A stretch of DNA of 33,640 nucleotides from a virus: UHGV virus genome UHGV-0206080; one strand, 5' to 3'. The translations under genes were made by a program, and so were the position numbers. The notes beneath the pieces are model-generated. The model searched no databases, had not been told where the DNA came from, and saw only the letters and a list, made by a program, of their open reading frames with translations. Shown one piece after another: positions 3,704-32,830 of the stretch; position 1 is the stretch's first letter; every line of letters starts with the position of its first letter.

Positions 3704-4295
3704 CCGTGAGACGCGCTGTTACAGCGGGGAAGTGCGGGCAGAACAATATGATAATGCCCCGACCCACATTCTGGGGTATGGCTCGGTATTTAACAGTCGT
3801 TCAGAACCTCTGTGGGGATTTCGTGAAATCATCAAGCCGGGGGCTTTTGACGATGTACTGAATGATGATGTACGTGGCTTGTTTAATCATGATCCTAATT
3901 TCATTCTCGGACGAAGTTCTGCCGGCACGTTGTCATTGTCGGTGGATGAACGCGGTTTACGTTATGACATTGTTGCACCGGATACTCCGACTATTTGTGA
4001 CCTGGTGCTGTCTCCAATGTTGCGTGGTGACATTAATCAGTCCTCGTTCGCGTTTCGTGTCGCCCGTGACGGAGAGAGCTGGTATGAAGACGACGAGGGG
4101 ATTGTTATCCGGGAAATCACGCGCATTTCTCGTCTGTATGATGTCAGCCCGGTGACATATCCGGCCTATCAGGACGCAGACTCTGGTGTCCGCTCAATGA
4201 AAGCCTGGCAGGAAGCGCGGGCGAGTGGTGCGCTGAAGAAAGCTGTTAACGAACGAATGGCGCGTGAGCGCCTTTTGACCCTTCTTAATGCATAA
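3696..4295 (+). CDS. Prohead protease (HK97 family)
   Basis: ATG at 3696 with GAGGAAAA RBS, overlapping portal stop; ORF 3657..4295 immediately upstream of major capsid gene. Confidence 0.8.
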   Translation: MNDRETRCYSGEVRAEQYDNAPTHILGYGSVFNSRSEPLWGFREIIKPGAFDDVLNDDVRGLFNHDPNFILGRSSAGTLSLSVDERGLRYDIVAPDTPTICDLVLSPMLRGDINQSSFAFRVARDGESWYEDDEGIVIREITRISRLYDVSPVTYPAYQDADSGVRSMKAWQEARASGALKKAVNERMARERLLTLLNA

Positions 4296-4309
4296 GGATA
4301 CTACTGACG

Positions 4310-5527
4310 ATGAAACTTCATGAGATGAAGCAAAAACGAAACACCATTGCAAAGGATATGCGTGCACTGCATGAAAAAATTGGTGATAACGCATGGACTG
4401 ATGAGCAGCGGGCAGAGTGGAACAGGGCGAAAGCTGAGCTGGATGCGCTGGATGAGCAAATCGCCCGTGAAGAAGAGTTGCGCCGTCAGGATCAGGAATA
4501 TGTGGATGAGTCCGGGCCGGAAGAGCGCCAGAATAATGAGGCGGAGAACGGGAAAAAGGCGGTGGAAGAGAAGCGCGCTGCGGCATTTAACCGTTTTCTG
4601 CGTGCCGGATTTGCAGAACTGAATGCTGAAGAGCGTAATCTGATGCGTGAACTGAGGGCTCAGAGTGTAACAACGGATTCTCAGGGCGGATATACGGTGC
4701 CCACGCAGATGCGTAACAAAATCATTGACACCATGAAGGCTTATGGCGGGATTGCCAGTGTGGCGCAACTTCTGACCACATCAACCGGGCAGGATATCAC
4801 CTGGTCAACGTCTGATGGCACGACTGAAGAGGGCGAACTGCTGGCGGAAAATACAGCCGCAACGGAACAGGATGTGACGTTCGGGACCGCTATTCTGGGG
4901 GCTAAAAAGCTGTCATCAAAAATAATTCGTGTGTCCAATGAGCTGCTCCAGGACAGTGGGGTGGATATTGAATCTTATCTGGCAAACCGTATTGCCCAGC
5001 GTATTGGTCGTGGAGAGGCGAAATATCTGGTTCAGGGGACCGGAACTGGATCACCGTTACAGCCAAAAGGGCTGGCAGCGTCGGTGACGGGAACCATCCA
5101 GACTGCAGCCTCTGCCGCTTTCACCTGGAAAGAAATGAATGCTCTGAAACATGCCATTGATCCGGCATATCGTGGTGGGCCGAAATACCGCTGGGCATTC
5201 AATGATGCCACATTGCAAACTATTGAAGAGATGGAGGATGGACAGAAACGCCCGTTATGGCTGCCGGATATTGCAGGCGGTACGCCAGCTACTGTGCTGG
5301 GGATCCCTTATGTTATTGATCAGGCTATTGACGGGATTGGTACCGGAAAAAAATTCATTTTCCTGGGGGATTTCAACCGCTTTATCATTCGCCGCGTTAC
5401 TTATATGGAACTGAAACGTCTGGTTGAGCGTTATGCTGAGTTTGATCAGGTGGCATTTCTGGCTTTCCATCGTTTTGACTGTGTGCTGGAAGATGTGGCA
5501 GCCATCAAGGCGCTCACTGGAAAATAA
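4310..5527 (+). CDS. Major capsid protein (HK97 family) with N-terminal coiled-coil delta domain
   Basis: 405 aa; charged, heptad-like N-terminus (EQRAEWNRAKAELDALDEQIAREEELRRQ) followed by capsid-fold region; followed by intrinsic terminator. Confidence 0.85.
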   Translation: MKLHEMKQKRNTIAKDMRALHEKIGDNAWTDEQRAEWNRAKAELDALDEQIAREEELRRQDQEYVDESGPEERQNNEAENGKKAVEEKRAAAFNRFLRAGFAELNAEERNLMRELRAQSVTTDSQGGYTVPTQMRNKIIDTMKAYGGIASVAQLLTTSTGQDITWSTSDGTTEEGELLAENTAATEQDVTFGTAILGAKKLSSKIIRVSNELLQDSGVDIESYLANRIAQRIGRGEAKYLVQGTGTGSPLQPKGLAASVTGTIQTAASAAFTWKEMNALKHAIDPAYRGGPKYRWAFNDATLQTIEEMEDGQKRPLWLPDIAGGTPATVLGIPYVIDQAIDGIGTGKKFIFLGDFNRFIIRRVTYMELKRLVERYAEFDQVAFLAFHRFDCVLEDVAAIKALTGK

Positions 5528-20560: not shown

Positions 20561-20594
20561 CTTGGAATTACTTGGAATATTGTCTTGGAATATT
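20561..20594 (+). repeat. Three direct CTTGGAAT(A/T) repeats, putative arm-type integrase binding sites; further copies at 20342-20350 and inverted at 20406-20414
   Basis: Read directly; repeats flank the tRNA-derived core and overlap the integrase 3' end. Confidence 0.5.
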
Positions 20595-21593
20595 TTCAGG
20601 TAACGGGACATCAAGTGTTGGTGAAACTTTAACCTTCCTGTCATAGATTAGCACTTGCCCTTCGGTTTTGTGACCAGAGAAAAGTTGCTTATCCCGACTG
20701 CTTCCTTCATAGTCTGAAATTCCTTTCGCCTTCAGATCATGAAAGGTGAAGTCGGTTAAAATACCTGAAATTTTGCCTGCGCGATTTCTTGCTTCTACCC
20801 ACATTTCGTTAAAGCCTTTGTACATATATCGGTTGCCGTATTGATTGCTGATTACATAGGCGGATGTTGGTAACTGTTTTGCTTTTTCGATCGCCGCCTG
20901 TAATCGTGGACTCCATGCTTTTATCTGTTTTTTCCCTGTTTTCCCTTGCTGGATAAAGATCCCGTCGTTTCCAATCTGCTCCCATTTCAGCGATAACACA
21001 TCGGAAACCCTCGCTGCACACAGATAGGCAATTTCCATTGCGATAAAAACAGGAAGAGGTGCAACGCTTAATACTGCCTGGTATTCTTTGTCGGTTACAT
21101 ATCGTTCGCGGTTTTTGGCCTTGAATTTACTTACACCTGCACATGGGTTAGCCTTCACGTACCCTCGCTCATATCCCCAACTGTAAACGCGGGACATACT
21201 GCTTTTTTCATGGTTGGCTTGCGTTTTGCTCTGTTCCCCTCTTTTGTCCATGTATCGACGGATGTGTTCTGGTTTTATGGAATCCGCTGGTACCTTACCG
21301 AATACGGCAAGCAACTTTTTTTGATGTTGCAGATAATCTTTTTGTGTTCTTGGGCTAAGGTCACTGTAACAGGCGCTGGCGAGGAATTTTTCCCACAAGC
21401 GACCGAATGTCATTGCACGATCGCGATTATTTACAGTTTCCTCATACTTTTTCCATAAAGCAGCTAAACCATCCTTGATGGCGGTTAGTGTTACAGATTC
21501 TCTGGATGTTGGTTTCCATACATAACTATATTTATTTGGGTATACATTTGGAGGTAATTTTTCGTGTTCAGGATTTTTCCTTCGTCTTCCCAT
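20568..21593 (-). CDS. int: Tyrosine integrase (lambda Int-like)
   Basis: 341 aa; C-terminal catalytic region ...RVSDVLSLKW...FHDLKAKG...GHKTEGQVLIYDRK with Tyr nucleophile; adjacent to attP. Confidence 0.9.
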   Translation of the reverse strand: MGRRRKNPEHEKLPPNVYPNKYSYVWKPTSRESVTLTAIKDGLAALWKKYEETVNNRDRAMTFGRLWEKFLASACYSDLSPRTQKDYLQHQKKLLAVFGKVPADSIKPEHIRRYMDKRGEQSKTQANHEKSSMSRVYSWGYERGYVKANPCAGVSKFKAKNRERYVTDKEYQAVLSVAPLPVFIAMEIAYLCAARVSDVLSLKWEQIGNDGIFIQQGKTGKKQIKAWSPRLQAAIEKAKQLPTSAYVISNQYGNRYMYKGFNEMWVEARNRAGKISGILTDFTFHDLKAKGISDYEGSSRDKQLFSGHKTEGQVLIYDRKVKVSPTLDVPLPENIPRQYSK

Positions 21594-21796
21594 CAGATCG
21601 CACCAAAATTCGGCTCTACCTCGCGTGGTGGTAAAGTTTTATTGCAGGTAAATAGATCCCGGCTGACAATCGGTTTGCCACTACGATTGGTATAGAACGG
21701 AAGCCCGTTTTCCATTAACCATTTTCGCTGGTGGCTTGCATATTTGCAGCCCGTTAATATTAGCAATTCATCTTCGGTTAAAAATAAGCTGCTCAT
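21593..21796 (-). CDS. Excisionase-like small protein (DUF4224-type)
   Basis: 67 aa; immediately upstream of and overlapping int start. Confidence 0.5.
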   Translation of the reverse strand: MSSLFLTEDELLILTGCKYASHQRKWLMENGLPFYTNRSGKPIVSRDLFTCNKTLPPREVEPNFGAI

Positions 21797-21812
21797 AGCT
21801 ATATCTCATAAC

Positions 21813-21840
21813 CGCCGCTAACTATATGCGGTTAGCGGCG
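21813..21840 (-). promoter_or_regulatory. 10-bp stem / 8-nt loop hairpin between exonuclease gene and xis
   Basis: CGCCGCTAAC-TATATGCG-GTTAGCGGCG; no T-run, so likely processing or regulatory structure rather than an intrinsic terminator. Confidence 0.4.
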
Positions 21841-21854
21841 ATCAGGGTTGAACA

Positions 21855-24326
21855 TTAAAAATCAGCCTGACTCGGGATCAGTTTTTGCCAGATAGCTGAA
21901 ACGTATTTTGCCTGGTAACGGGCGTCATCAAGTGCATTATGGCGCTCACCTTCGAATGGAATAGCCGTTCTGGCATCGAAGTCTATGGCTTTCCCCAGCT
22001 CAACGATTGTGCGTACATCGCGATCGTTGTAGTAACGCCACGGGCAGGGGATCCCCTGCCGTTCGTATGAACGGCGCAAAATTGTGTTGTCGAAGTTGGC
22101 TCCATTTCCCCAGACCTGAACAAAAAATTCACCGGAGTTTTCGTCGATAAATTCCCGCAATTGTAACAGTGCATCATCTAACGGGATTTCATCGGTCATA
22201 ATGGCAGATTGCGCCTCCCGTGATTGCTTAAGCCACCATTTAATGGTGCCACGATCAATGACTCCGCCAGCAGTATCCATATCGATGGTCTTACTAAATT
22301 CCGGCCCCATATCTCCGGTTTGCGGATCGAAAAATATTGCACCTATTGAGATAAGCGGGGCATCGGGATTTTTTCCCATGGTTTCAAGGTCGATCATCAT
22401 GTGGTGCCACATTCTGCTGGTGGATGTGATTTTATGATGACCGTTCATGGTAATTAAGGGATTTGCCGTCCCGCCAGCTTCATTATCGCTGGTGTGATGC
22501 TGATTACCGTCAGCGTTCTCTTTGTGCGGATATTCAACACGTTCCATTTCCTCCGGATCATTTTCCTGAACTTCAACCTGATTCTCTTCATTGAATGTTT
22601 CCTGGTATGTTGCGTCACCCATCACCGCGCCACAATCAGGGCTGTTGCCGCCACCGCTTTGACCGCAGGCGGTGCAGACTTTTTCCGGTTCCTGTTGCGC
22701 TACTGGCTCAGGTTGTTTCGTTTCTGGCTCGTTTTGTTGCGTATTTGGGCTGTTTTGTTCCGCTTTCTGGTCGTTCTGTTCCGATTCTTGCTGGTTCTGG
22801 TTTACAGAATCGCGGGTTTCAATCCCCTTTACCCATTTCGGATCATTCGGGTCGCTAATCCCTGCAACAAATTCTCCGCGAGAGGCAGCAAGCAACTTAT
22901 CGGCGTCAGGCTGGCTGATATTAGCTGCCTGCATAATTTTGTTTACTTCGTCAGCGGTAACTTTTACCGGCTCTGGTTGTGCGGTCGTGTCAGATGCACC
23001 AGTATTTTGTTGTGAACCTGAGTACGTGCCGTTTTTACGTGCGAAGTATTCCTCTTTTGTGATTTCCGTAGCTCCCAAGGCTAGTGCTTTTTCCAGACCA
23101 GAAAGTTTGTTTGCGCGACCGTATTTTTCGCCATCCTTGTCGGTGAAGAGGAAGTAGAACGGCCCCTCACGCTCTACAGATGGTTCGACTTCCACTTTGC
23201 ATTCGGTTTTTTCGTTGTCCGGAATTGCCGTTTCCACTGCATCAGTTTCTGGTACTGGCGACGAGAGAGTATCAGTTGCGCTCTGATTTCTTCCTTCATC
23301 TTCAAACACGCCCTTTGTAGTCAGGTATTCAGTAATGTATTTGTTCAGTGCCACAGGGTCTTTGTGAATGTCGATCGGACGTTCACGGACAAGGCCAAAA
23401 ATAGTCTGGCGGTCGTAGCGAAGGACATCAGGCTGTTTGCGCATTGATGCCGAGATACGCTTCCAGTCTTCGCGGTCGTTGTCGATAACTTCATTTTTTG
23501 CCCAGCGATGGATGCTGCCGTCAATGTTTCCGGTATCAATATCGCCAGGCCAGAGAGCGTAGGCCAGTTCTTCATCCAGCGTTTTCCATGTCTGCTTGTA
23601 TTCGCGACAAATGGCGGCAGTGACTGGGTTGATTTTTCCTGCTGAGTTTTCAGTGTTCTGTTGATTGACTCTGGCGCTGGCGAGATCAACAACAGACGTG
23701 TATTTTCCAGTCTCTTTGCGCTCTGCGTCCTGCCGTTTTTTCCAGTTACGTAATTCAGCCTGAATTTCGGGCCATTTGGCACCCGGATTACATTTGTGTT
23801 TAACCCATCCGATAGCGAACAGTTTGCGTTCCGGATACATAGCGTTAATTTCAGGCGTTTTCATCAGTGCTTCAACGATATGCCCGTCAAAGGTAGCAAC
23901 GTCTTCCTGCAGTAATTCCTGCGCGTCAATCGCCATATCAACGGTGATGTTTTCACATGTACCGAACTTAACCAGGACCGCGTTCTGTACTTCAAGGGAC
24001 AGCTTGTCAAAATTGACGTTCATCGGATCGGATTCTGGTTCGACCGGAATAAAGGAAGCGGATTCCTCATCCCAGCGGTTTTCCTGCATATATTCAGCAT
24101 CCCAGGAATCGAGGGCAGGGCGGGGTATACCGGGTTTATCCTCGCAGACAAGAAATTTATAAGCGCAGTCCTGAGCAGCCGGATAATGTTCCAGGAATTG
24201 CCAGTGAAATTTTGCGCGGGCGCGACGTTCATCACCGGCTTCAATGGCAGTGGCTACAGCGACGGCACCTTCTTCCTTTATTGCCTGTTCGTCCGGAATG
24301 GCGGCGCAAATAAAGACTTTACTCAT
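21855..24326 (-). CDS. Exonuclease: RecE-like N-terminal/middle region fused to a C-terminal DnaQ-like DEDDh 3'-5' exonuclease domain
   Basis: 823 aa; C-terminal motifs MIDLETMG, WGNGANFDN, HNALDDARYQ; KLLAASRGEFVAGISDPNDPKWVKGI segment recalled from RecE-family proteins; Q/E/N-rich linker. Confidence 0.75.
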   Translation of the reverse strand: MSKVFICAAIPDEQAIKEEGAVAVATAIEAGDERRARAKFHWQFLEHYPAAQDCAYKFLVCEDKPGIPRPALDSWDAEYMQENRWDEESASFIPVEPESDPMNVNFDKLSLEVQNAVLVKFGTCENITVDMAIDAQELLQEDVATFDGHIVEALMKTPEINAMYPERKLFAIGWVKHKCNPGAKWPEIQAELRNWKKRQDAERKETGKYTSVVDLASARVNQQNTENSAGKINPVTAAICREYKQTWKTLDEELAYALWPGDIDTGNIDGSIHRWAKNEVIDNDREDWKRISASMRKQPDVLRYDRQTIFGLVRERPIDIHKDPVALNKYITEYLTTKGVFEDEGRNQSATDTLSSPVPETDAVETAIPDNEKTECKVEVEPSVEREGPFYFLFTDKDGEKYGRANKLSGLEKALALGATEITKEEYFARKNGTYSGSQQNTGASDTTAQPEPVKVTADEVNKIMQAANISQPDADKLLAASRGEFVAGISDPNDPKWVKGIETRDSVNQNQQESEQNDQKAEQNSPNTQQNEPETKQPEPVAQQEPEKVCTACGQSGGGNSPDCGAVMGDATYQETFNEENQVEVQENDPEEMERVEYPHKENADGNQHHTSDNEAGGTANPLITMNGHHKITSTSRMWHHMMIDLETMGKNPDAPLISIGAIFFDPQTGDMGPEFSKTIDMDTAGGVIDRGTIKWWLKQSREAQSAIMTDEIPLDDALLQLREFIDENSGEFFVQVWGNGANFDNTILRRSYERQGIPCPWRYYNDRDVRTIVELGKAIDFDARTAIPFEGERHNALDDARYQAKYVSAIWQKLIPSQADF

Positions 24327-24421
24327 TTTGTTTTAACCTCATTACAGATTTCAGGGTGAACGAATCCCTGCCATTGCTGGCATTTTTAATCCGTTGGTAT
24401 GGCGTTAATATGGCTGGCGGG

Positions 24422-24610
24422 TTATCCAGCCGGTATTTCGTTATTCAGGTTCAGCGATACTTTTTTTAACGGGAGGCATTCACCGGGGATTTTTTGTTCG
24501 TCCCTTACCTGAATGCAGGATGACTTACTGTCATAAATTCCGGTAATCACATTTTGTGGCTCACCCGTTATAAGAAAAACGGTCATCACCAGTGCAAATG
24601 CTGAAGTCAC
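24422..24610 (-). CDS. Small protein with hydrophobic N-terminus (62 aa)
   Basis: GTG start preceded by GGAGA; translationally coupled to upstream gene; N-terminus MTSAFALVMTVFLITG. Confidence 0.4.
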   Translation of the reverse strand: MTSAFALVMTVFLITGEPQNVITGIYDSKSSCIQVRDEQKIPGECLPLKKVSLNLNNEIPAG

Positions 24611-24795
24611 TGCTGTTCTCCGATAATACCAAGTTCAAGAAGGGCAATTCTGGAAAGTATGGAATTATCATTGAGAAGATAAGGTTCATATTTTCTCATC
24701 TTAATGGCATCTTCCGTAAACTCCCGGTTACTGAGCAGAACACCAATATCAAAACAACCTTCAGACGTATTAACGTTTGGTAATAACGTTTCCAT
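24607..24795 (-). CDS. Small hypothetical protein (62 aa from ATG at 24795; alternative GTG start at 24900 gives 97 aa)
   Basis: ATG at 24795 has GAGGA RBS 7 nt upstream; the GTG at 24900 has no SD. Confidence 0.4.
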   Translation of the reverse strand: METLLPNVNTSEGCFDIGVLLSNREFTEDAIKMRKYEPYLLNDNSILSRIALLELGIIGEQQ

Positions 24796-25327
24796 TATCG
24801 CGTCCTCAACAATGAATTTTGTGATGCGGTGCCTGGTGCCTCCAGGTGACGTTAACCAGTTAACAATTAACGCCGGATACAGAGAATCCACCCATAACAC
24901 TGTTTTTGGTTTTAACTGTTCCGCGTGCGCTCAGCCGCATTCACCACATCACAAAATTCACTTTAAAAAGGGCGGCAGAGCAGTCACGGAGTAAAACTGA
25001 TACCGCCAAACGTCACCAGAAAATTGATAACAGAGGGCGTTGCAGCGGGGTTGTCACTTAAGCGTATGGTCAACCTGACAACCCGGTGTCCTCAGCGGGG
25101 GAAGGAATAACCCCGCCATACTTACCGCCGCGCCATTTCGCGGATTGCCACAACCGGAAGCGCACGATCGAATTAAATTTAACGACGACCTATACAGAGA
25201 GACTAACTTCTCCGGGCGCTTTCGTGTTATGCCCTGACTTTTCAGGGATATATCCTTTTCAGTAAACTGTCAGTGCCGGATTCTTATCCGTGTCCGGCGC
25301 ACGCACTCTACCTCACCTGTGAATAAA

Positions 25328-25702
25328 TTAATGATTAATCGATATTTTGTTGTTTGATTCAACTTTCCCATCGGATGTGTGATGCTTTAAATCACAGGAA
25401 TTAATACTGCTTGCTGTAAAATGATTTTCAAGGGGAGCTATTCGAATCCCTTTCTTTTTCATTAACAAGCCAAATCCTTTATTAATGATGTCCATTAATT
25501 CCAGAAAGTATTTTTCATGTAAATCCTGGTTATCAGAGAGCTGCTTCTCTTCGTACAGCCCGATAAAGGCTCGGCGTACGTTACCGGATATATTGTCGAT
25601 GGTTTCTTTTTCTACGGTACTCAGGTCAAGAGTCGCCAGTTGAGAGCGAACCACATTCGATGCCATTTCCTGGAATGGTACTGGTAAATCTTTAAATTCC
25701 AT
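25328..25702 (-). CDS. Hypothetical protein (about 124 aa), AT-rich accessory gene
   Basis: ATG at 25702 with GAGG SD; ORF 25328..25714; coupled to the 85-aa gene upstream. Confidence 0.5.
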   Translation of the reverse strand: MEFKDLPVPFQEMASNVVRSQLATLDLSTVEKETIDNISGNVRRAFIGLYEEKQLSDNQDLHEKYFLELMDIINKGFGLLMKKKGIRIAPLENHFTASSINSCDLKHHTSDGKVESNNKISINH

Positions 25703-25713
25703 CGTCAACCTCA

Positions 25714-25971
25714 TCAGTCGGAGTTTCTTGCTAACCAGCGATGCGCGCCAGCTTCGGTTTTAAACGTTTTGCTTTTGGTATACGTCATGGCGGTGAATGT
25801 GCCGTCCTGGTTGGGGAACACACCACATACCAGAGATTCGCTGTTGCCAAGATCGATAGTATCCATGCTGACCTCATTACCCCTTAACGCCGGGTAGCGG
25901 AACTGTTTGCTGAGAACACCGTGCGGTGTCTTGATGGGTGGTAATTTAGTTTTCTCATGAATGTCGGTCAA
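25714..25971 (-). CDS. Hypothetical protein (85 aa; TTG start, internal Met at residue 36)
   Basis: First gene leftward of the repressor; stop overlaps start of the next gene (TGATG). Confidence 0.4.
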   Translation of the reverse strand: MTDIHEKTKLPPIKTPHGVLSKQFRYPALRGNEVSMDTIDLGNSESLVCGVFPNQDGTFTAMTYTKSKTFKTEAGAHRWLARNSD

Positions 25972-26017
25972 GCATTTTTAATGAGAAAACTCAATATTTA
26001 ATGCAAAATAAAGCCAA

Positions 26018-26031
26018 TACATTGAAATGTA
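26018..26031. promoter_or_regulatory. Operator-like inverted repeat TACATT-GA-AATGTA within putative leftward early promoter region
   Basis: Read directly; lies in the 84-bp AT-rich gap between the dicA-like stop and the first leftward gene. Confidence 0.3.
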
Positions 26032-26055
26032 AGGCTTTAAAATTTGTGAAGGGGG

Positions 26056-26463
26056 TTACTGATGTTTGTTACGTTTGCGAGCTTCTAGTAGCTCGGTGAA
26101 TAGGCGATTAAAATTCTCAACGCGGGCACGGAGTTCGCTGATTTGTGCTTGCTGCTCTGATTTTGGAAGTGCGCGATACAATCGCAACATCTCCAACTCA
26201 TCTTCCGATAAGTCTAAGGCGCTGTTGAGTGCTACTGGTGGATCTGGTGTTTTATCCTCGTCACCAAACAGTATCCAAGTTGGTGAACATTGCAATACCT
26301 CAGCCAGGCGATGCAAATTTTGCCCGCGCGGGGCTGTATGGTCGCTTTCCCATAGTGAAATTGATGAGCCAGATACGCCAGCGGCTTTGCTTAAATCGTT
26401 TTGACTTAAACCAACCTGTTTGCGTCTTTCTCTAATTCGTTGACCTAAAGTTTTCTCGTTCAT
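26056..26463 (-). CDS. dicA: DicA-like HTH (XRE-family) phage repressor
   Basis: 135 aa; close match in length and sequence to recalled E. coli Qin DicA (..GERIRxRRK...QCSPTWILFGDEDK...RARVxNFNxLFxELLxAR..). Confidence 0.85.
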   Translation of the reverse strand: MNEKTLGQRIRERRKQVGLSQNDLSKAAGVSGSSISLWESDHTAPRGQNLHRLAEVLQCSPTWILFGDEDKTPDPPVALNSALDLSEDELEMLRLYRALPKSEQQAQISELRARVENFNRLFTELLEARKRNKHQ

Positions 26464-30274: not shown

Positions 30275-30732
30275 GAGAGGTTAACTATGAGGCGCTTCGT
30301 GAGGCAGCACAAAACTATCAGTCGACGCTGGCGTGGTATCAGGCTATCCCGGACAGCCCAAATGCTGAACGGGATTGTGATGCGGCTCTTGCTGCGTTTA
30401 AGCGTCACATCCGTCATCGGGAAGCGGATATTATCGCTGATTTGCTGGATGGACTGGAAGAAGCAAAATCACAACTCAAAGAGCAGCGTGAGTATTACGA
30501 AGGCGTTATCTCTGATGGGAGCAAGCGTATTGCTGAACTGGAAGCGCGGGAAGTTCAATTACCGACTCGCTACGACCTTCGATATGGACACCCGATAAAT
30601 GCAGATGAGCGACATGTCATGATACCTAAAGAAAATGGCAGTTGGCTTTACCTGATTGACCTAGAACACGCATTACGCGTCTCTGGCATTCGCATCAAAG
30701 GAGAGGAGCATGGAAATAAAACCAGAGGATGA
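30271..30732 (+). CDS. Hypothetical protein (153 aa)
   Basis: ATGA overlap with upstream gene; coiled-coil-like middle region. Confidence 0.5.
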   Translation: MREVNYEALREAAQNYQSTLAWYQAIPDSPNAERDCDAALAAFKRHIRHREADIIADLLDGLEEAKSQLKEQREYYEGVISDGSKRIAELEAREVQLPTRYDLRYGHPINADERHVMIPKENGSWLYLIDLEHALRVSGIRIKGEEHGNKTRG

Positions 30733-31066
30733 GTTAAGCAATATCGTTTTATTTCCGGTAAAAGAGGATGACCCTCGTAATCAGGTTAATTTTCTTTATG
30801 AGCCATCGGAAAGACCATATTGTCATCACGCCTCTGTCCGGGTTGACGAAAAAGAGCGTCAGGTCCGCTGTAAAATCTGCGGTGCAGTTGTGGAGCCATT
30901 TGACTGGATGCTCTCTGTGGCGAAAAGAGAAACCAGACTGGCAGATGATGTAAGGCACTTGCGCCAGGAGGAGCGGGAAAGGCGAAAAAATATAGAAAAG
31001 CTAATTCAGATTGAGCGTAACGCGAAAGCGCGGATACGCAGGGCGACAAAATCCAGAACTGAATAA
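30710..31066 (+). CDS. Hypothetical Cys-containing (zinc-ribbon-like) protein with basic coiled-coil C-terminus
   Basis: 118 aa; CHH...CKICG cysteine/histidine pattern; RQEERERRKNIEKLIQIERNAKARIRRA tail. Confidence 0.45.
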   Translation: MEIKPEDELSNIVLFPVKEDDPRNQVNFLYEPSERPYCHHASVRVDEKERQVRCKICGAVVEPFDWMLSVAKRETRLADDVRHLRQEERERRKNIEKLIQIERNAKARIRRATKSRTE

Positions 31067-31159
31067 TTAAATTTAGCTCTGTTAAAAATTTAATCCTTAA
31101 CCGGAGGGATTTCTGCACCCTCAGAACATCAGGAGGCCGCCCGAAAGGGCGGTAGTTAA

Positions 31160-31342
31160 ATGCGAAAGTTTAAAATAATTATTGAAACGGGAATAGCCGG
31201 TGGAGATTTCGAGGATGAATTCGAAGTGGATGATGATGCGACGCCTGATGAAATACATGACGAAGCAAAAGATATTTTCTTTAACTACTGCAATTACTCA
31301 TATCACGAAATAAAAGACGAAGAGGAAGAGCAAAATGGCTGA
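31160..31342 (+). CDS. Highly acidic small protein (60 aa)
   Basis: DFEDEFEVDDDATPDEIHDEAKD...KDEEEEQ; SD AGGAGG separated from the ATG by a GAAA-tetraloop hairpin. Confidence 0.45.
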   Translation: MRKFKIIIETGIAGGDFEDEFEVDDDATPDEIHDEAKDIFFNYCNYSYHEIKDEEEEQNG

Positions 31343-31511
31343 TTTTGGTTCAACTAAATACAACGTCAGTTTTGAAGCATGGCATGAACTGTTAATGGAC
31401 TATGCAGAGTTACGTGGTGGCAGTGCTGCTGATGCTGAAGCATGGCGTGATGATTATGAAGCAGGAAAAACTCCGGTCGAAGCATATTGTGATGAGTGGG
31501 GCGATGAATGA
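31335..31511 (+). CDS. Acidic, Trp-containing small protein (58 aa)
   Basis: ATG 31335 overlaps upstream gene; stop overlaps next ATG (ATGA); below ORF-track cutoff. Confidence 0.35.
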   Translation: MADFGSTKYNVSFEAWHELLMDYAELRGGSAADAEAWRDDYEAGKTPVEAYCDEWGDE

Positions 31512-32023
31512 GCGAGATTAATTATCAGGAAGGGCATGAAACGGCAGGGCAGGCAAAACCAGTTGCATGGCGATATCGCTACGTGAAAAAAGACGTTACA
31601 GACTTTCAGGGGAAGCCGTGGGCTGGTGACTGGAAATATGTACCGACAAAAGAGGATTGTAACGACAGGCCGAACTATGAAATTCAGGCCTTATTCATCG
31701 GCCCGCCAGTCCCGGTGACATCAGAAGGACTGGTTAAAGCCGTGCGCTTTTATGAACAGGTAAAGCGTGAGAATCCGCCAGTCGAAACAGGAGCATGGAA
31801 GGATGCTGTTGACTGGGTGCTCAGAGAGGCCTGCTGCGCTGCCATTCTGGGTAAAGCCGACAATCCACCAGCATCCGGCAATCAGGTTAGCGAATTAACA
31901 ATGTGGGTTAAACGACTGGTCAGTCAACTGAAAAAAGCTCAGCCGGACTGCAAATTACCGGAGAAGGCGATGGATTACCTGAAACGAAATGGACTGATAA
32001 GCGTGGAGGATGTTTTACGATGA
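31508..32023 (+). CDS. Hypothetical protein (171 aa)
   Basis: Translationally coupled to the two acidic genes. Confidence 0.5.
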   Translation: MSEINYQEGHETAGQAKPVAWRYRYVKKDVTDFQGKPWAGDWKYVPTKEDCNDRPNYEIQALFIGPPVPVTSEGLVKAVRFYEQVKRENPPVETGAWKDAVDWVLREACCAAILGKADNPPASGNQVSELTMWVKRLVSQLKKAQPDCKLPEKAMDYLKRNGLISVEDVLR

Positions 32024-32323: not shown

Positions 32324-32580
32324 ATACAGCGAACACCATTGGTTTAGTTGGATATTTACTGTGCCGGACAAAAACGGTTTGCGGGGAAATCTTAGTTAAG
32401 TAGAATAACTGCGGGTGCTTGAGGCTATCTGTCTCAGGCATGAACACCAAAAGGCAGATAGAGAAAAGCCCCAGTTAACATTACGCGTCCTGCAAGACGC
32501 TTAACATTAATCTGAGGCCATATCTATGCGACACATAGAGATTAGCCTCTTACGGACCGAAAGGTCAAGGAGAAGCAGGC

Positions 32581-32737
32581 TATGAAGCAGCAAAAGGCGA
32601 TGTTAATCGCCCTGATCGTCATCTGTTTAACCGTCATAGTGACGGCACTGGTAACGAGGAAAGACCTCTGCGAGGTACGAATCCGAACCGGCCAGACGGA
32701 GGTCGCTGTCTTCACAGCTTACGAACCTGAGGAGTAA
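32581..32737 (+). pseudogene. hokD: hokD/relF-type Hok toxin gene, apparently frameshifted by a 1-bp insertion near 32700
   Basis: Residues 1-40 MKQQKAMLIALIVICLTVIVTALVTRKDLCEVRIRTGQTE match recalled HokD; after GAGGG at 32698-32702 the conserved tail VAVFTAYEPEE is encoded in the +1 frame; in-frame product ends GRCLHSLRT at 32730. Confidence 0.65.
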
Positions 32738-32744
32738 GAGACCC

Positions 32745-32766
32745 GGCGAGGGAGAAATCCCTCGCC
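32745..32766 (+). promoter_or_regulatory. 8-bp stem hairpin just downstream of hok (possible fbi-like 3' element)
   Basis: GGCGAGGG-AGAAAT-CCCTCGCC. Confidence 0.4.
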
Positions 32767-32806
32767 ACCTCTGATGTGGCAGGCATTCTCAACGCACCCG
32801 CACTTA

Positions 32807-32830
32807 ACCCGCTTCGGCGGGTTTTTGTTT
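32807..32830 (+). terminator. Rho-independent terminator after the hok locus
   Basis: ACCCGC-TTCG-GCGGGT followed by TTTTTGTTTTT. Confidence 0.7.

Follow-up and report, generated by a model that had tools for sequence, protein, structure and literature searches.

Two unrelated acidic small proteins, joined as a cassette in Escherichia coli lambdoid prophages, as candidate inhibitors of host proteins

The UHGV virus genome UHGV-0206080 is a stretch of 33,640 nt, and this whole stretch is the window analysed here, with coordinates counted from its first letter. It carries three overlapping open reading frames (ORFs), A, B and C, the first two of which encode very small and strongly acidic proteins. 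A first-pass annotation of the letters alone took the three for a translationally coupled trio that begins with two possible DNA-mimic anti-defence proteins. The locus raises the question of whether A, B and C form a system, and whether the acidity of A and B points to DNA mimicry or to another role. All three ORFs exist where that annotation had placed them (Table 1) and are annotated in RefSeq, A under the name 'DUF7167 family protein'. A and B are real, conserved genes with conserved acidity and compact predicted folds; they are linked to each other in E. coli, and C is a variable neighbour. We tentatively regard both as inhibitors of host proteins.

Two conserved families of small acidic proteins

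A and B are neighbours and rank first and second in acidity among the 185 six-frame ORFs of at least 50 amino acids (aa) in the window. The description of A as extremely rich in Asp and Glu, and of B as acidic with several Trp, is accurate: 20 of 60 residues in A and 15 of 58 in B are Asp or Glu, and the computed isoelectric points (pI) are given in Table 1. The acidity is common to both families. All 54 aligned sequences of the A family have a pI of 4.05–4.53 and a net charge of −7 to −18, and all 57 sequences of the B family a pI of 4.05–4.80 and a net charge of −4 to −15; the acidity is retained at 33–40% identity in both. Both genes are under purifying selection. Relatives at 45–78% protein identity give nonsynonymous divergence (dN) of 0.12–0.5 with synonymous divergence (dS) saturated, and a dN/dS of 0.16–0.39 where the ratio is computable. 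The other conserved positions are aromatic or aliphatic in both families, together with a few Gly, Thr and Pro. They include I8, I32, A36 and F40 in the A family and F13, W16, L20, A24, W37, Y41 and W55 in the B family, in which the three Trp are conserved. These aromatic and aliphatic residues probably form the core, with the charge on the surface.

Structure prediction gives a confident model for each protein. A (AlphaFold2, predicted local distance difference test (pLDDT) 83.4) consists of a β-hairpin (residues 2–9 and 16–23), a helix (29–43) and an acidic C-terminal tail, while B (pLDDT 88.1) is a three-helix bundle (13–26, 34–42 and 47–55). Neither fold matches a solved protein. Kinship between A and B themselves was considered and rejected (hhalign probability 0.1%).

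A belongs to Pfam family DUF7167 (PF23768), which it matches with 55.1 bits (cut-off 24.4) over profile positions 1–60 of 60, and to PHROG 1997 (E = 9e-31, full length). It has the features of that family, namely a length of about 55–60 aa, the core MRKFKV.IET...G..G...EV.DDAT.EEIEE.A and an acidic tail, and is a full-length member with nothing different about it. Nearly all of the 99 cluster representatives recovered by an exhaustive HMMER search are stand-alone proteins of 50–70 aa. Among the variants (proteins P0076, P0217, P0211 and P0146) are a protein of 105 aa that DUF7167 matches twice, probably through tandem duplication, and a DUF7446+DUF7167 fusion. DUF7167 is a phage-only family, and apparent plasmid copies proved to be integrated prophages. 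Relatives of A at 37–70% identity are found, unaccompanied by B, in a Klebsiella lambdoid phage, Guernseyvirinae, Enterococcus Herelleviridae and Phapecoctavirus. In Guernseyvirinae the gene lies just before a DUF2800/PD-(D/E)XK exonuclease, and in the Enterococcus phages just after a DUF3850/ASCH protein. A conserved exonuclease partner was considered on this account and rejected: the two 'exonuclease' neighbours come from unrelated families, so A has no conserved partner. A relationship of A to lambda Orf55, the T7 Gp2/p56-like protein of the exo-xis region (PMC8614690), was likewise rejected (hhalign probability 0.2%).

B has no match among Pfam families. It matches PHROG 519 (E = 2e-22) with its C-terminal part, covering profile positions 76–137 of 143, whereas the profile is longer than B and some of its members are fused with DUF1187. 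One such fusion, DUF1187+B of 127 aa, is reported for 20 Enterobacteriaceae entries, and another variant carries a 14-residue internal duplication. Literature searches on DUF7167, DUF1187 and the RefSeq accessions returned nothing.

Relatives of B at 40–86% identity occur without A. In Enterobacter lambdoid prophages the gene follows an Ead/Ea22 gene and adjoins xis-int; in Salmonella P2-like prophages it directly follows gpA and overlaps replication gene A at its end; in Det7 and other Ackermannviridae it lies downstream of the major capsid gene and adjoins it. The family is also present on 554 plasmid records, 516 of them typed conjugative. On the IncI2 plasmid pEC3II_1 (L107 7390-9662) a homologue 86% identical to B is the third gene of a long transfer operon, which reads CaiF/GrlA-like regulator, DUF1187, B, SPFH, NfeD and type IV secretion genes, and B lies about 15 kb from the relaxase module. 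The gene of this homologue, one of the WP_000753050-type proteins of IncI2 plasmids, overlaps the upstream gene by ATGGCTGA, the same sequence as in the window. On the 230-kb MOBH plasmid pRJA166a (L111 20001-20183) B stands in an array of about 25 kb of small hypothetical genes, all in one direction, near hok. Both plasmid positions were weighed for a possible place of B in the leading region. Phages and conjugative plasmids thus share B, a distribution typical of establishment or counter-defence genes.

The A-B cassette and its translation signals

Tight linkage of A and B is confined to E. coli. We compared 80 IMG/VR loci whose copy of A is 98–100% identical to that in the window; B follows A in every one of them and at the same offset in 79, while ORF C and the genes upstream differ between loci. 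Together with its ribosome-binding site, the A-B stretch is present at a coverage of at least 80% in 1750 of 5426 complete E. coli genomes, a count of the stretch that says nothing on the intactness of the two reading frames. In the Stx2a phage ArgO145 the pair occupies a site within the pL exo-xis region, where Ead/Ea22-like genes surround it and a different gene follows. Homology between the window and ArgO145 starts just upstream of the Shine-Dalgarno (SD) sequence of A, at TCAGGAGG, so that the ribosome-binding site of A marks the 5' edge of a mosaic unit. Because A-B sits in different operons with its homology edge at this site, the pair behaves in E. coli as one mosaic cassette.

ORF C does not share this behaviour. 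It matches PHROG 660 and segments of several other PHROGs, and is a patchwork of at least three segments (approximately residues 1–115, 38–119 and 108–171) that occur separately in many temperate and some virulent phages. Its coverage by any one phage record stays at or below 80%, and its first codons are constant at the junction with B. The three genes do not co-occur across divergent elements. The trio of the first-pass annotation does not hold as a unit, since more distant elements carry either A or B by itself and C is neutral and mosaic; the trio is an accident of neighbourhood and no system.

The translation signals of the cassette are well preserved. The AGGAGG sequence ahead of A is kept in 76 of the 80 loci. 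Between it and the AUG lies a hairpin that appears in both the minimum-free-energy fold of the RNA and the centroid, and the folded hairpin leaves 6 nt (AGUUAA) ahead of the start codon. In the 77 loci with the upstream sequence found in the window, the sole changes in the stem are C-to-T and retain a G-U pair; the other three loci have a different upstream sequence and a shorter stem. The hairpin may promote translation of A by bringing the SD sequence close to the start codon. Hairpin-bridged ribosome-binding sites have been described for T4 genes 38 and 25, and the layout at A resembles them.

The junctions between the ORFs are of two kinds. The ATGA type, previously given for the whole locus, describes B/C, where GATGAATGAGC is found in 75 of 77 sequences of sufficient length. 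A and B overlap by 8 nt instead, and this overlap, ATGGCTGA, is identical in 80 of 80 loci. Ahead of the ATG of B, a GAGGA sequence within Glu codons of the tail of A may serve as its SD sequence. Stop and start codons overlap with no predicted promoter or terminator in between, as in a coupled operon, and from this arrangement A, B and C are probably coupled in translation. The first 8 nt of B hold an out-of-frame TGA that is the stop of the upstream gene, which is a DUF7167 gene in prophages and a DUF1187 gene on the IncI2 plasmid (L107 8001-8008). With either kind of upstream gene stopped inside the first 8 nt of B, coupling appears to travel with the B module.

Table 1. Features of the window around ORFs A, B and C
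Feature	Position	Strand	Description
ORF A	31160-31342	+	60 aa; 9 D + 11 E (33%); net charge −15; computed pI 4.05
ORF B	31335-31511	+	58 aa; 7 D + 8 E (26%); 3 Trp; net charge −11; computed pI 4.06
ORF C	31508-32023	+	171 aa; pI 7.6; near-neutral, non-acidic
SD sequence AGGAGG of ORF A	31131-31136	+	Read from sequence; 23 nt upstream of ATG unless the intervening hairpin forms
Hairpin GCCGCCC-GAAA-GGGCGGU	31136-31153	+	7-bp stem including a closing G-U pair; GNRA loop
SD-like GAGGA of ORF B	31322-31326	+	Within Glu codons of the tail of A, 8 nt before ATG of B; putative function
A/B overlap	31335-31342		8 nt, ATGGCTGA
B/C junction	31508-31511		ATGA type
PHROG 1621 protein	30710-31066		118 aa, basic; zinc-ribbon-like CxH...CxxC motif; charged C-terminal helix
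hok/sok module	32413-32737		Intact; Rfam sok 106.7 bits and 51-aa HokD
isrK-like match	32746-32827		Weak, sub-threshold
Left operon	20568-26463	−	Contains dicB

Setting in the prophage and fate in cryptic elements

Many E. coli chromosomes match the window at 100% identity. To judge from the RefSeq annotation of one identical copy and from Pfam scans, the window represents an E. coli lambdoid prophage of the Qin/Rac-like kind. Its gene order begins with the integrase, an 823-aa protein with an Rv2179c-like exonuclease domain, dicB and ydfC, followed by the repressor, Cro-like and YdaT-like genes and then by DnaT-like and P replication genes. DUF1627, DUF977, DUF4406, an Ead/Ea22-like gene and the 118-aa zinc-ribbon protein come next, ahead of ORFs A, B and C; hok/sok, rem, DUF968, RusA and the Q antiterminator lie 3' of ORF C. 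A-B thus stands between the replication genes and hokD/Q, and this order puts ORFs A-C within the delayed-early pR operon, in its nin-like accessory part. The early region named in the first-pass annotation is to be corrected accordingly to a delayed-early one, 3' of the replication genes. Around A-C, no promoter- or terminator-like site is predicted on the + strand between 30600 and 32700.

Some of the neighbours deserve mention in their own right. In 65 of the 80 related loci the 118-aa PHROG 1621 protein is encoded 450–452 nt upstream of A, and eight further loci have it at a different offset; it is thus a frequent companion of the cassette. The hok/sok module is intact, and a weak isrK-like match lies next to it (Table 1). 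The left operon has no recognisable Bet/RecT or Gam, and DicB is present; the C-terminus of its 823-aa protein is the Rv2179c-like domain, of the 3'-5' exonuclease type. We considered whether A-B replaces Gam in this prophage, which lacks Bet and Gam. The idea is weakened by ArgO145, which has a Gam-like RecBCD inhibitor alongside A-B, so the pair is not simply a Gam replacement.

In cryptic prophages the cassette decays. The copies of A and B in PhiR42_1 (L003 ~5104-5480) and Rac 442/2 (L004 ~4053-4455) have internal stops or a lost start. In the Qin copy of a DH5alpha assembly (L105 4030-4381) A is flagged as a pseudogene with an internal stop and B carries no annotation. The host-benefit neighbours dicB, hokD and relBE are still annotated intact in the cryptic prophage. 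This decay beside intact host-benefit genes suggests that A and B are under selection only in active elements.

Possible roles and comparison with known systems

What A and B bind, and whether they help to evade defence, we infer from these properties. The reading we prefer, although we hold it only tentatively, is that both are host-takeover or counter-defence inhibitors in the broad sense, which act by stoichiometric blocking of a host protein. A and B would be two unrelated small globular acidic accessory proteins, joined in E. coli lambdoid prophages as a coupled cassette that is transcribed within a long early operon, from pR downstream of the replication genes in the window and from pL in ArgO145's exo-xis region. 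A would be translated from its strong SD sequence, brought near the AUG by the GNRA hairpin. B would be translated by coupling, because the stop of A lies inside its first 8 nt, and the variable gene joined by ATGA would follow. Through its conserved negative surface, each protein would occupy a positively charged surface on a host protein, probably one that binds nucleic acid, and so block it in lytic growth or establishment. The target of A would be conserved from Firmicutes to Proteobacteria, or would be a phage-encoded partner. Since phages and conjugative plasmids both carry B, its target should matter to any incoming element in Proteobacteria, and the occurrence of B in several phage types as well raises the chance of a target that every incoming element meets. 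The restriction of both families to mobile elements, their early accessory positions (nin-like and exo-xis in lambdoid elements, after gpA in P2-like ones) and their presence in virulent phages as well are consistent with this proposal. T7 gp5.9, a very small protein of pI 4.0, blocks RecBCD by DNA mimicry (PMC9836394) and is a precedent for very small acidic inhibitors of the kind we propose.

Several points weigh against inhibition of a host protein. A search with an acidic query tends to retrieve acidic sequences, and the conservation of acidity is perhaps somewhat exaggerated. Chaperones and subunits of phage complexes can be small acidic proteins too, and the Ackermannviridae homologues of B lie by the major capsid gene, a position that is not obviously early. 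No paper mentions DUF7167 or DUF1187, and neither A nor B resembles any characterised inhibitor or anti-defence protein. The PADLOC defence-system models give no match to A, B or C at E ≤ 0.1.

DNA mimicry, the role first proposed for the locus, would make A and/or B inhibitors of type I restriction-modification (R-M) or related DNA-binding defences by the logic of Ocr and ArdA. Both proteins have the small size and the strong excess of Asp and Glu of the DNA-mimic class; their net charge, −15 and −11 on about 60 residues, is conserved in both families; and B is common to phages and conjugative plasmids, which likewise carry ArdA-type anti-restriction genes. DNA mimics are defined by a phosphate-like array of surface carboxylates, usually on an elongated monomer or dimer, and by competition with DNA for the target. 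Their folds are highly varied, and a length of about 50 residues can suffice (gp5.9, PMC9836394). However, charge is the sole feature that links A and B to them. The first-pass statement that sequence similarity to Ocr and ArdA is absent agrees with our sequence, profile and fold comparisons, which find none to gp5.9 or any other solved protein either, and mimics make up just 11 of 268 catalogued anti-defence proteins (bioRxiv 10.1101/2025.06.06.658234). We consider mimicry very unlikely. At the other extreme, A and B could be chance frames or decaying, functionless remnants, as the several pseudogene copies in cryptic prophages might suggest. That reading is effectively refuted by families that span distant phages and plasmids at 33–55% identity with conserved length, by purifying selection, by the confident fold predictions and by the presence of the A-B stretch in 1750 of 5426 complete E. 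coli genomes.

Two further roles are suggested by the neighbours of the genes. A and/or B may be accessory factors for the DNA metabolism of the element itself, modulating or chaperoning replication or recombination proteins. They follow DnaT-like and P replication genes in the window, genes annotated 'exonuclease' stand beside the relatives of A in Guernseyvirinae and Enterococcus phages, and the P2-like relative of B overlaps the end of replication gene A. Yet the neighbours differ in every lineage examined: in ArgO145 the pair lies far from the replication genes, in the exo-xis region, and has a Gam-like gene besides, and on the IncI2 plasmid B stands at the head of a conjugation operon, which makes this role unlikely. 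Modulation of the lysis-lysogeny decision, or of host transcription or physiology, in the way of the lambda exo-xis proteins Orf60a, Orf61, Orf63 and Orf73/TraR-like, appears doubtful. Exo-xis proteins do influence lysogenisation and induction (PMC3824215, PMC8614690), the Enterobacter prophage relatives of B follow Ead/Ea22 genes beside xis-int, and the IncI2 copy follows a CaiF/GrlA-type regulator. Sequence comparison nevertheless shows no relation to lambda Orf55, and there is no Pfam match to the exo-xis families DUF1317 or DUF1382. This role is also weakened by the members that both families have in strictly virulent phages, for which there is no lysogeny decision to make.

Inhibition of host proteins is the most economical reading, and a more specific form of it, which we consider quite unlikely as it stands, can be outlined. 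B would be a broad mobile-element decoy against a DNA-binding silencer or defence protein shared by Beta- and Gammaproteobacteria, such as a type I R-M complex or a silencer of the H-NS family. A would act separately, as an inhibitor with a more universal target, in phages whose hosts belong to different phyla. The two would make up a new two-gene counter-defence cassette in about one third of E. coli genomes. Should either protein turn out to inhibit a factor of the host or of a defence system, a family of very small and very common inhibitors would be gained, with bearing on the host range of phages in therapy and on the spread of plasmids. The present result mainly narrows the claim made for this locus, from a three-gene system to two independent, conserved hypothetical families of acidic proteins.

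Among known systems, Ocr and ArdA share with A and B a strong negative charge, and ArdA shares with B an occurrence on mobile elements that include conjugative plasmids. Ocr and ArdA are dimers of 116–166 aa, elongated and resembling bent DNA. A and B are half that size, with unrelated predicted folds and no hidden Markov model or structural matches to them. T7 gp5.9 and other very small DNA mimics, such as phi29 p56, also share features with A and B: they are phage-encoded proteins of about 50–60 aa with a pI of about 4, located in an early or DNA-metabolism cluster (PMC9836394). gp5.9 forms a dimer, a parallel coiled coil that a short β-sheet braces, whereas A is predicted to be a β-hairpin with a helix and B a three-helix bundle. 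The small exo-xis and nin proteins of lambda (Orf55, Orf60a, Orf61, Orf63 and Ea8.5) have no sequence relationship to A and B, which also occur in virulent phages and, in the case of B, on plasmids; but they share with them their niches, size, early expression and non-essential accessory character (PMC8614690). A and B are thus uncharacterised members of catalogued families, of modest novelty, and of the kind that can be called small acidic mobile-element accessory proteins.
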